This document shows, in pieces, positions 7,101 to 10,100 of a stretch of 64,000 bases of DNA. Position 1 is the first letter of the stretch; every line of letters begins with the position of its first letter. The notes beneath the pieces are model-generated. The model was not told the DNA's origin and searched no databases. It saw only the letters and a list, made by a program, of their open reading frames with translations. The DNA is from Botryllus schlosseri. Lineage: Eukaryota. The stretch is taken from contig CM119371.1 of the NCBI GenBank assembly GCA_051294905.1, positions 30,010,001 to 30,074,000 on the forward strand, read 5' to 3'. Both the position numbers and the translations under genes were made by a program.

Positions 7101-10100
7101 TATTTTGTTTGAGGTCGCATAAAAGGTACATACACTGGCAATTTTTGCATCGTGTATTCTTGGCAGTGGTTTTAACTACTTCAAAAGACAGTGAATTGTA
7201 CATTAAATTAAATTAAAAACCGCCAAACCTGAGAACCGCTGTTGTAGAATTTTCAAATCCGAATTCATCTCAAACCTGAATGCGAATTCGAAACATTACA
7301 GGGAAACGGATTTCATTCAGCGGGACCAAAATTTACAGAAGCAAATCACCGTCATCGAGCAAAGGCACGAAGAAGAGAAGCAATGCCTCCACACACAAGT
7401 AAGAATATGTCGCTATACTTCACAGAGGAGGTCGACGTAGTCGGTGATTAGAAGTAGAAGATATCCAGCAAGATACTAAATTACAATTGAATTATATAAT
7501 TTGAATAGTAAATTCATATTGAAATTAACCCAAATATTTCCGGCTGACACTCGTCAGGGGTAATCGTAAGCAACTAGTAGAGAATTGGAAAGAACACTGT
7601 ATATTAACTATCGTATCACAAAACCAAGTCTGTGCCTATAGAAGCAGTTTGTGTACCAACTAAAAATAGTACATTGAACGCTCTCTTATTCCAAATTCCA
7701 TGCTGGTGACGTCATATTTTGTGATACGATTGTTGATATACAATGCACTTCCTAATTCTCTACTAGTTGCTGACGATTACCCCTGACGAGTGTCAGCCGA
7801 AAATATTCGGGTTCATTTCAATATGAACATACTATTCAATTGTATATTGATGTTCTGTGCCTTCAAGAAGCTCTTCAGATATACTTGTAGTTGGTTAGAA
7901 ATGTATGGCGTTACTTTCAATTCCACCTGAGTAGATTCAGTTGATTTTTCATTTCATATCGTGGGGCTGGGTGTCTCTAATCGGTTCTGTTACGTCTAGA
8001 TCTCAGACCTGGAGCATCAGATCGACAGGATGAGGGTGAGCGGCGATATGAACCAGAACAACAGCAACGTGGCCAACGTCAGGCCGAGAATGCAACTAGC
8101 TGCATCTGCAGGTAAGCTCCCGCTCAAGCAATAGGTTGAGAAACACTACACTACGGACTACCTTTGATTCTACTTCTTACTATTTCAGCAATCCAATTTC
8201 GCATCACATGCTTTTTTGATTAATCAAAGTTCAGCCAACTCAAACGGCCTTACCTATTGTCCGCATTCCAATTCATTATTACTAGGTCGATTTTTTTACC
8301 TAAAAAAGGGGAGATTTCGACTTGAAAATTTAGACATGTAAAACCTAAATTTTGACCAAATTTTGATCTCTTGTATGTAAATTAGGTGTTTTCCCCACAT
8401 AATGTTAGAATTGTGCTACTTGTCTTCATTTCTGGTTGGAACTGTCTGTCCTTACGAAGTAGGTTGCCTGAAAAAGCTTTTATGACTTAAAAACTCACAA
8501 ATTTTTACACAAAAAAACTTTATCTGAGCGAAATCTGGACCTATGAAGAATTCCAGTGGTTACATCACGCATTATGGTAGAAATAATTAAAATTTTTTGT
8601 AGTGCAACGAAAGATACTCTCCTATATTCTGGGGTAGAAAGTGTCTGTTATCATTACTAAGTAGCTTGCCAAGAACGGAGAAAGAACGTTCTACAGCAGC
8701 AGTTGTTGGCTGGCAACACTCAAGTTGTGCGTACACTGCTGGTGACTAACCGTGTTGCTTCATTCTGGCAATGTTGCCTACATCAAAATTTTTCATCATA
8801 CGCTTCTTGATATAAGAACCAATCTTGCTTCAGTTAGGATATTACGGTACTTTGAGCATAGCACCATGTCAACCTATTTGTTTCATTTCAATGTTTATGA
8901 TTCACAATGGGCAGATAATGGGCCCTCTACAACGGTAGGCCTGTAAAATAGGCTACAAGCTGTAAAATATCATTATTTCACTCAAGCTCGTGTCCTAAAC
9001 GCAGATAACGATACCTCCAAAACCGGTACTACTGTGAATTCGCAACAAGGAGTCCGCGCCAATTCCCATGTCTCATTCGATGACCTGATCGCGAATCTGG
9101 ACGACATGCTCGAAGTGCCCAAACGCGCTTCTACCTCAGAAAAACCAAGACAGGTAAGCATTAAATGTAGGCGTTTACTACAGTAACTGTAACCACTGTT
9201 AGGAAATTGCATTTTTCTCAATAAGTTACCTTGCTGTCTTGTAGCTAGCCACTCTCTGCTAATTCTTGCTTGGAACTTGGAAGTAATTGCTGGTACCTTT
9301 CTTGAGCAGTTCTCGGCTTATTCCAGGCTTACACTGTAAGTCAGCCTTAGGGCGACACCATGAATTTCCTGATTTACCTTCCAATTTTGTATAGTTACTC
9401 TCTGCTAAGTCTTGCTTGGAAGTACTAGCTTGATTCTTATCTTGAGTGGTTCTCTACTTATTCCTATATGACTGTGTCAGTCAGCGTTCGAGGTAAACCG
9501 TGAATTTTTGTTCCTTTCCTGATTTAATTTTCAATATTCTATGGTTACTCTTTCCTTAGTCTTGCTTGTGAATTGTTCGGGTCTCATCTTGAGTACTACT
9601 CGGGCACAGCTCCTTTTTTACACAACTGTGGCACAGTATAAGTCGGCGATGGGACCAAACCGTGAATTGTTATCAATGTAGTGTAGGCTCATGTGAGAAA
9701 TTAGCCTTCTCTCGTAAATAAGCTTACCTATCATTGATGTCGATTTCCTTCTGATTTATTATTTATTTATTATTTATTATTTTTGTCAAATTTCACAGGC
9801 TACTTGATAGAACTGTTATGTTACCAAAAAAACCGATGCACACTAATTTTGAATCAATTATTATAGTAGAAAATTTTGTATTTATTTAATAAAATTTATA
9901 TAAATTGGTGGCAAATTCTTTCATTATTTATGATAGAGCTACCCACCGTAAATACTATGATTTGAAATCTTAAATTTTGAACATCAATAACTTCGCTTCT
10001 ACTGTTGGGAATTGCGCCGAATTTGCTGTGCGTCCTTTTTTCAGACAACCTAACAATCTTATGGGGTAGCCAGTACAATATGAACACTTTTTATATTTAT

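Follow-up and report, generated by a model that had tools for sequence, protein, structure and literature searches.

Evidence for a pseudoknotted hammerhead motif carried into a neurabin intron of Botryllus schlosseri by a Penelope-like retrotransposon

Hammerhead ribozymes of Penelope-like elements (PLEs) occur as thousands of dispersed copies, are predicted to form dimers and have been proposed to act in that form (Cervera and De la Pena, 2014; PMC4209133). According to a review, they are usually without tertiary contacts (PMC6155905). PLE insertions have a common 3' end, variable 5' truncation and an inverted partner (PMC8557442), and the inversion and tail seen at the locus described here are also found among them (PMC8557442; PMC11167929). 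For the Poseidon element of Anolis, cutting needed protein, and insertion in vitro persisted in mutants of the ribozyme (Frangieh et al., 2024; PMC11167929). Among microbial hammerheads, an RNA with a one-pair stem II and a 6-bp pseudoknot cleaves at >1.2 per min at 0.5 mM Mg2+, and disrupt/restore mutants indicate that this cleavage depends on the pseudoknot (Perreault et al., 2011; PMC3088659). About 40% of the hammerheads in that study, from all three types, were predicted to have a pseudoknot (PMC3088659). In the crystal of the PK hammerhead (Zhan et al., 2024; PDB 8YDC; PMC11300833), the pseudoknot helix stacks on the G10.1-C11.1 pair and stem I is held alongside. A stem II of one pair together with a 6-bp pseudoknot is known among microbial hammerheads, and dimer stems of palindromic sequence among Penelope elements. 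According to the 2017 survey by Lunse, Weinberg, and Breaker, most hammerheads reportedly have a pseudoknot or another contact that links loop II to the bases preceding stem I, and about 150,000 variants with a short stem III are said to exist. The form with a one-pair stem II and a pseudoknot may already be present in the alignments of that survey. A search of the accessible literature found no PLE hammerhead that combines a one-pair stem II, a 6-bp pseudoknot and a palindromic dimer stem, outside of Lunse 2017 and Weinberg 2015, whose supplements may contain the motif.

The window analyzed is a stretch of 64,000 nt from B. schlosseri (contig CM119371.1, positions 30,010,001 to 30,074,000). 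It contains a 44-nt hammerhead motif on the + strand at 7769-7812, in which every named part is found at its predicted position (Table 1). The original prediction described a full catalytic core, a 4-bp stem I, a palindromic stem III (AAUAUU) and a UUC site, all of which were located on this strand. The conserved bases of the type I core (CUGANGA ... GAAA ... NUH) are all present, with the invariant alignment columns being partly fixed by the search patterns. The three-way junction consists of an open-ended and covarying stem I, a stem II of a single pair, and a stem III that would need a dimer. With the core complete and the stems covarying, the assignment to minimal type I hammerheads with a palindromic, dimer-type stem III holds. 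The single G-C pair of stem II stands as well, although its loop, given earlier as six bases, has seven (the free base U7791 and the pseudoknot 3' arm at 7792-7797). G10.1 and C11.1 were fixed by the search patterns, and their constancy is not independent evidence. The cut is predicted to occur after C7808, a position taken from the hammerhead consensus. The ATG downstream of it is a dead end at this locus, where the copy is truncated.

Table 1. Positions of the ribozyme parts, the insertion, the host exons and related remnants, numbered within the window
Feature	Position	Strand	Basis
Upstream coiled-coil exon of host	7300-7398	+	Contig piece, translation
Host intron, GT..AG	7399-7999	+	Splice joint 7398 -> 8000
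Downstream exon of host	8000-8115	+	Contig piece
SAM exon of host, downstream	17150-17494	+	
Inverted arm with second, damaged hammerhead	7493-7623	-	Sequence comparison
Direct arm: 5'-truncated element (last ORF codons, pseudo-LTR with hammerhead, 3' tail)	7622-7882	+	
Putative pseudoknot 5' arm, 6 bp with 7792-7797	7769-7774	+	Sequence, covariation across families
4-nt linker, mostly G-N-U-N across families; 5-nt linker in a young family C sub-family	7775-7778	+	
Stem I 5' strand, pairs with 7809-7812	7779-7782	+	Both-side changes in three of four pairs, 36 distinct rows
Catalytic core CUGACGA, C3-A9	7783-7789	+	Sequence; 8,603 genome core-pattern matches vs 58 in control
One-pair stem II, G10.1-C11.1 (G7790-C7798), closing 7-nt loop	7790-7798	+	Sequence
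GAAA (7799-7802); G12-A13-A14, palindromic stem III (7802-7807), C17	7799-7808	+	Sequence
Stem I 3' strand	7809-7812	+	Sequence, covariation
ATG matching first in-frame Met of retrotransposon ORF, 14 nt past predicted cut site	7823-7825	+	
Decayed pseudo-LTR remnant; 13-nt deletion, linker and stem I lost	2168-2278	+	
Decayed pseudo-LTR remnant; GAAA broken	12835-13018	+	

Searches against Rfam gave no hammerhead match, either for the whole window at the gathering score or for 7400-8000 at E values up to 10. A loose core pattern matches the window at chance level (5 matches vs 4.98 expected). For the strict core and the full motif, 300 mononucleotide shuffles of the window gave 0 core-only and 0 full matches. 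By these counts, the loose pattern alone is not significant, the strict core is not a chance match, and the candidate self-cutting motif is real.

The motif shares several features with the PLE hammerheads of Cervera and De la Pena (PMC4209133), being of type I and present in both pseudo-LTRs, with a short stem I and a palindromic stem III. Its dispersed copies are likewise single or on opposite strands (PMC4209133). However, helix II has 3-8 bp in 56 of the 56 rows of their Fig. S3 and one pair here, and their form has an extra base after A9 that is absent here (PMC4209133). The accessible text of that paper describes no tertiary contact, whereas a covarying 6-bp pseudoknot is predicted here; furthermore, the descriptor used in that work would miss the form with a one-pair stem II (PMC4209133). 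The resemblance to the PK hammerhead is found in the junction. In both, the core is standard, helix II comprises A9-G12 and G10.1-C11.1, and the place of a longer helix II is taken by a 6-bp pseudoknot helix that involves the strand ahead of helix I (PMC11300833). The 5' arm of the PK hammerhead is the loop of a helix IV hairpin, with an A-minor linker and a normal stem III (PMC11300833), whereas here only 4-5 nt separate the arm from stem I, and stem III is palindromic and of the dimer type. A counterpart of helix IV was considered and rejected, with the flanks of the arm pairing in families A and C and not in families B, D, and E (by eye).

Other known hammerheads differ in type or setting. 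The RNA tested by Perreault et al. is of type II, metagenome-derived and monomeric, unlike the putative type I dimer here, and the stem-length analysis in that study omits highly repetitive type I motifs (PMC3088659). The variants of Lunse, Weinberg, and Breaker (2017; via PMC6765202) are similar in their short palindromic stem III, PLE context and dimer cleavage. As in the Anolis Poseidon, the hammerhead lies at the junction of pseudo-LTR and ORF, a tail of 30-40 nt is found at one insertion end, and no RNA-seq ends occur at the cut site (PMC11167929). In contrast, the ORF of the Anolis element starts inside the ribozyme rather than 14 nt after the cut, and the accessible part of that report mentions no pseudoknot (PMC11167929). 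The domesticated intronic hammerheads of RECK and C10orf118 are single-copy, have a stable stem III and are kept at orthologous sites. The present motif differs from them in its 2,539 identical copies and its 2-bp stem III. By this comparison, the motif resembles the PK hammerhead in its presumed mode of action and the PLE dimer hammerheads in its location, and it lacks one defining feature of each.

The sequences that carry the motif share a common 3' end and have variable 5' truncation points, and their upstream extension runs into a frame for a reverse transcriptase (RT) and an endonuclease (EN). One complete element (L063) has two 269-bp repeats, which are 99.6% alike, lie 2,684 nt apart and flank an 860-aa stop-to-stop ORF. 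The motif is present in each of these pseudo-LTRs, 14 nt ahead of the ORF start. RVT_1 in this ORF is above the cut-off (E 8e-9). The GIY-YIG match of the L063-type element is below the Pfam cut-off (E 0.027), and this domain is above the cut-off in two homologues (P0013 and P0084). In total, 841 homologues were found among the 8,000 candidates scored. The C-terminal 259 aa have 97-100% identity in all 147 scored copies, which suggests that the family is young. Together with a 2.7 kb tandem at L061, these findings point to a young family in which full-length copies are still intact and tandem arrays occur. At 15 of the 29 distinct loci that the first search gave, an inverted partner lies no more than 1.5 kb away. 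Features expected of EN+ PLEs are therefore all observed, namely RT followed by GIY-YIG in one ORF, pseudo-LTR repeats that each have a hammerhead, and insertions that are 5'-truncated, include an inverted copy and have a tail of 30-40 nt on one side. Based on this anatomy, the element is classified as a Penelope-like retrotransposon. The link to Penelope elements drawn in the original prediction is borne out by the RVT_1 ORF, the GIY-YIG homologues and the pseudo-LTRs. Placement in the Penelope/Poseidon clade is probable from a reading of the RT-EN linker, which has no Cys cluster by eye; the tree was built without named reference elements.

The exact 44-mer has 2,539 copies in the genome (1311 + 1228) and none in the control. 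For the core pattern, the matches number 4340 + 4263 genome-wide, compared with 33 + 25 for the reversed control. Differing loop sequences account for 1,528 matches in the genome (vs 42 in the control), and a family with a U3-A8 core accounts for 1,187 (vs 26). Among the first 100 of 2,468 copies selected by their flanks, 54 have the exact motif in a by-eye count, with exact-flank selection favoring young copies.

The sequences with differing loops belong to sister families that have their own ORFs, with about 45-67% protein identity. An ungapped alignment (A3) was prepared from 38 copies (36 distinct), with rows that were picked by us from pattern hits and are related; copies with 5-nt linkers, 8- or 11-nt loops, or disrupted or rearranged 5' arms were left out. 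Family F, which has an 11-nt loop, was excluded as a misfit to the fixed layout. The six pseudoknot pairs are paired in 93% of 216 cells, with 24 double changes. None of 500 shuffles has pairing as high and a slid partner gives 5-34%, although the shuffle counts overstate independence because the rows are related. Stem I is paired in 93.8% of cells, with the double changes listed in Table 1. The palindromic stem III is paired in 90.7%, and its inner pair alternates between A-U and G-C among families. Across 12 representatives of families and sub-families, including the U3-A8 core family and a family from metagenome assemblies, 71 of 72 cells are paired and five of the six pairs have double changes. 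Specifically, pair 1 is G-C, A-U, or U-A; pair 2 is C-G or G-C; pair 3 is U-A or C-G; pair 4 is G-C or A-U; pair 5 is A-U, G-C, or C-G; and pair 6 is constant. The free loop base is U, A, or G depending on the family. The pseudoknot is well supported by this covariation, and appears to be kept by related families even though the letters change. This agrees with the original prediction, in which a 6-bp pseudoknot was proposed to compensate for the reduced stem II.

The metagenome family accounts for 78 of the 120 pattern matches among those listed, and several of these adjoin PLE ORF ends. The full layout is present in 62 of the 67 testable copies of this family among the matches listed, compared with 0 of 41 other testable hits at fixed spacing. 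The remaining 42 of the 120 listed matches lie outside this PLE family. One metagenome locus (L176) may fit the layout with a longer linker. The best matches of the metagenome family in the B. schlosseri genome are at 73-82%, with no close one, and this family is taken to stem from a different organism. In viral contigs, 14 pattern hits were found, none with the full layout (by eye), and no PLE relative was found there. More distant PLEs with about 28-44% identity, among a set of 21 loci, have an ordinary long helix II where a motif is seen (L329, L331, L332, L340, L344, and L345). In a tree of 17 rows, the eight rows with the pseudoknot form group at 100/100. All eight are from this genome, six fragments of <250 aa were dropped, and a long-branch warning applies, such that a single origin of the pseudoknot form is only suggested.

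The host gene, on the + strand, encodes neurabin/spinophilin, as identified by the SAM exon and by a PDZ exon ~26.6 kb upstream of the motif that matches neurabin-2 (E 1.6e-18). The predicted intron of this gene was seen spliced in one contig from one of four runs; none of the sequencing runs listed for this sequence is on record as RNA, and the run in question is only guessed to be RNA. The sample with the spliced contig may be without the insertion. Within the 601-nt intron, the insertion occupies about 390 nt. Its direct arm has 88% identity to L063 over 261 nt, and its inverted arm stops some 36-42 nt before the direct arm does. The hammerhead in the inverted arm is damaged (A13 to G, C17 to U, and one pseudoknot base changed). 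This inverted copy lies 93 nt upstream of the motif. Neither it nor the membership in a high-copy retrotransposon had been part of the original prediction. No clear target-site duplication was seen at the insertion (by eye). The copy in the window is a typical dead insertion and a transposon passenger at this locus. A single long helix is predicted for the intron (-237.5 kcal/mol; z -15; 0 of 20 shuffles as low), in which an inverted-repeat helix of ~120 bp would bury the motif. The ribozyme bases are predicted to pair with the inverted arm at a probability of 0.92, also in transcripts that end at 7812.

We consider it highly probable that a young Penelope-like retrotransposon brought this motif, its own hammerhead, into the neurabin intron as a truncated inverted-repeat passenger, and that the ribozyme follows a pseudoknot/dimer model. 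In this model, stem II would be reduced to a sheared A9-G12 pair and G10.1-C11.1. The 6-bp helix that loop II forms with the strand preceding stem I would stack on G10.1-C11.1, with one loop base crossing this helix as in microbial pseudoknot hammerheads. A single base spanning a 6-bp helix is ordinary pseudoknot geometry. By analogy with known hammerhead structures, G12 and the 2'-OH of G8 would catalyze the cut after C17. Stem III is a self-complementary hexamer that is presumably too short to close alone, and two ribozyme copies would therefore have to pair through it. A nested active monomer without the pseudoknot is predicted at +5.2 kcal/mol, and for an isolated monomer, a program without pseudoknots predicts a preference for two decoy hairpins, in which the core and the cut site are hidden. 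The core-loop decoy hairpin was considered as a conserved switch and rejected because it has no covariation. The palindrome duplex of family A is predicted at -0.2 kcal/mol, compared with -4.3 in other families. Tandem elements, such as the two repeats of L063, may supply both copies, and the element protein perhaps helps dimer formation. The pseudoknot would then dock stems I and II and speed the cut after the dimer forms. Cutting would release a unit-length element RNA, in which 14 nt would remain ahead of the first Met. Read ends do not accumulate at 7808/7809 in three raw RNA runs in which family reads are several hundred deep, which is a weak test because these are standard libraries with reads from many loci. 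The unique flanks of the intron have almost no read depth.

Alternatively, the fold may have been selected mainly as a protein-binding or translation-start structure ahead of the ORF, with cutting being slow or incidental. The short distance of 14 nt between the motif and the first Met fits this possibility, as do the genomic copies that extend about 74 nt past the cut site, which imply that the template was either uncut there or circular. In addition, the Anolis Poseidon cuts only with protein, its mutants still insert and no RNA-seq ends were reported for it (PMC11167929), and Naiad PLEs spread without a hammerhead (PMC8557442). However, all catalytic bases are kept across families that are 50-60% alike in protein, and the U3-A8 family has exchanged C3-G8 as a pair. 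These two patterns point to selection on active-site geometry, such that a main role apart from cleavage appears unlikely.

The original prediction further proposed that the ribozyme could cut the neurabin pre-mRNA. Such cutting might occur to some extent if the intron copy paired in trans with retrotransposon RNA, and could then alter host expression. The copy is in sense orientation, its motif is perfect in a sequence otherwise 12% diverged from the young element, and none of the other remnants within 94 kb has an intact sense-strand core. Moreover, family RNA is plentiful in the three raw RNA runs, and some mammalian intronic hammerheads cleave in vitro (PMC3088659). The intactness of the motif is nevertheless ordinary. 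Because 54 of 100 flank-selected copies are exact (by eye), no selection need be invoked; and because the motif is part of a mobile element present in thousands of copies, it does not appear to be a neurabin switch. The inverted arm is transcribed first and would zip the intron copy into the long helix described above, so the host pre-mRNA is probably left uncut. No intact sense partner for pairing in cis is present within 94 kb, PLE hammerheads are poor cutters in vitro (PMC4209133), and a spliced product exists, though its sample might be without the insertion. Cutting of the neurabin pre-mRNA is thus quite improbable, and the intron copy is probably a passenger that does not cut its host transcript. 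It is very improbable that the complementarity itself is a by-product, with the 5' arm duplicating the start of the core and loop II pairing with the core as an inhibitory hairpin; the core-start 7-mer of family A is repeated 13 nt upstream, the deletion in the remnant at 2168-2278 lies between such repeats and the core-loop hairpin is the predicted monomer minimum, but this hairpin is 80% paired without a double change (467 of 500 shuffles as high), and in families B, D, E, M, and U the 5' arm tracks the loop rather than the core.

Building on the pseudoknot/dimer model, a broader and more speculative scenario, which we regard as doubtful at present, is that one branch of animal PLEs swapped the long helix II for a microbial-type pseudoknot, giving a fast, dimer-gated ribozyme that would be new to the literature. 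Inverted insertions would self-silence in host transcripts because, after 5' inversion, transcription of either strand always reaches an antisense copy before the sense ribozyme, and lone sense copies in introns could cut in trans and be selected against.

For the biology of neurabin, the motif probably matters little. Its bearing is rather on why Penelope-like elements carry hammerheads, given that those tested from animals are slow cutters or depend on protein. A young family whose pseudoknot covaries, and is of the type that confers fast cutting on microbial hammerheads, would provide a clean test of selection for cutting. Furthermore, the roughly 8,600 core matches in this genome make the purging of sense-strand intronic copies testable.

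Eight further remnants of the family-A pseudo-LTR, the Penelope-like element (PLE) repeat from which the hammerhead motif derives, were found in and around the neurabin gene, including in two extracted stretches of this region, L115 and L117. The full core pattern is kept in only one of these eight remnants (L117, minus strand, 1546). Within the motif, the first seven bases of the core (window 7783-7789) are repeated 13 nt upstream, at 7770-7776. In the remnant at 2168-2278, the deletion corresponds exactly to the interval separating the two heptamer copies.

Family-A pseudo-LTR remnants in and around the neurabin gene
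Feature	Sequence	Position
Pseudo-LTR remnant	Window	2168-2278
Pseudo-LTR remnant	Window	12835-13018
Pseudo-LTR remnants	L117	1493-1667, 3820-3930, 9308-9517
Pseudo-LTR remnant(s)	L115	6314-6630

The neurabin region also contains other repeats. Within the gene, L115 has a 1,453-aa ORF (420-4778, minus strand) with protease, RT, RNase H, and integrase domains, which is LTR-retrotransposon-like, and an 861-aa ORF (6757-9339, plus strand) that has no Pfam match. The intron following that of the motif holds a second dispersed repeat (window about 8280-8970), which is about 80% alike in loci L002 and L008. Additionally, a 14-nt palindrome at 6589-6602 occurs again at 6939-6952, with a spacing of 350 nt; the two copies probably mark the termini of a MITE-like repeat, which is present more than once in the window. 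A degenerate tandem repeat at about 17500-18600 gives rise to low-complexity open frames in several frames.

Other hammerhead families are present in this genome. One repeat family (L073 and L077; G000:C1:7565906 and 8102132) shares the core but differs in its stems, and its loop II is 11 nt long. This loop could pair over approximately eight bases with a stretch located farther upstream. No PLE ORF was found beside this repeat family. PLE families with a U3-A8 core (L346-L366) account for 1,187 matches; in the main one, the stem III palindrome is odd-length (7 nt) and the pseudoknot register is unchanged.

Among metagenome matches, L325-L345 are loci with Penelope-like ORFs, some accompanied by classic hammerheads, on contigs filed as bacterial MAGs; they are probably eukaryotic DNA within the bins. 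Another match (L176, 516-541, minus strand) may fit the layout, with a 6-nt linker and a 7-nt stem III; no PLE ORF was seen at this locus.

Two tandem arrays were observed. A young array of the sister family C (L267-L270; G000:C10:7196398-7205302) has a period of about 2.7 kb and a longer linker between the pseudoknot arm and stem I. At G000:C16:20951739-20960592, the family-A element occurs four times in tandem (period about 2,692 nt), and two of the four units have the full 860-aa frame. This family-A array is a natural precursor with multiple predicted ribozymes.
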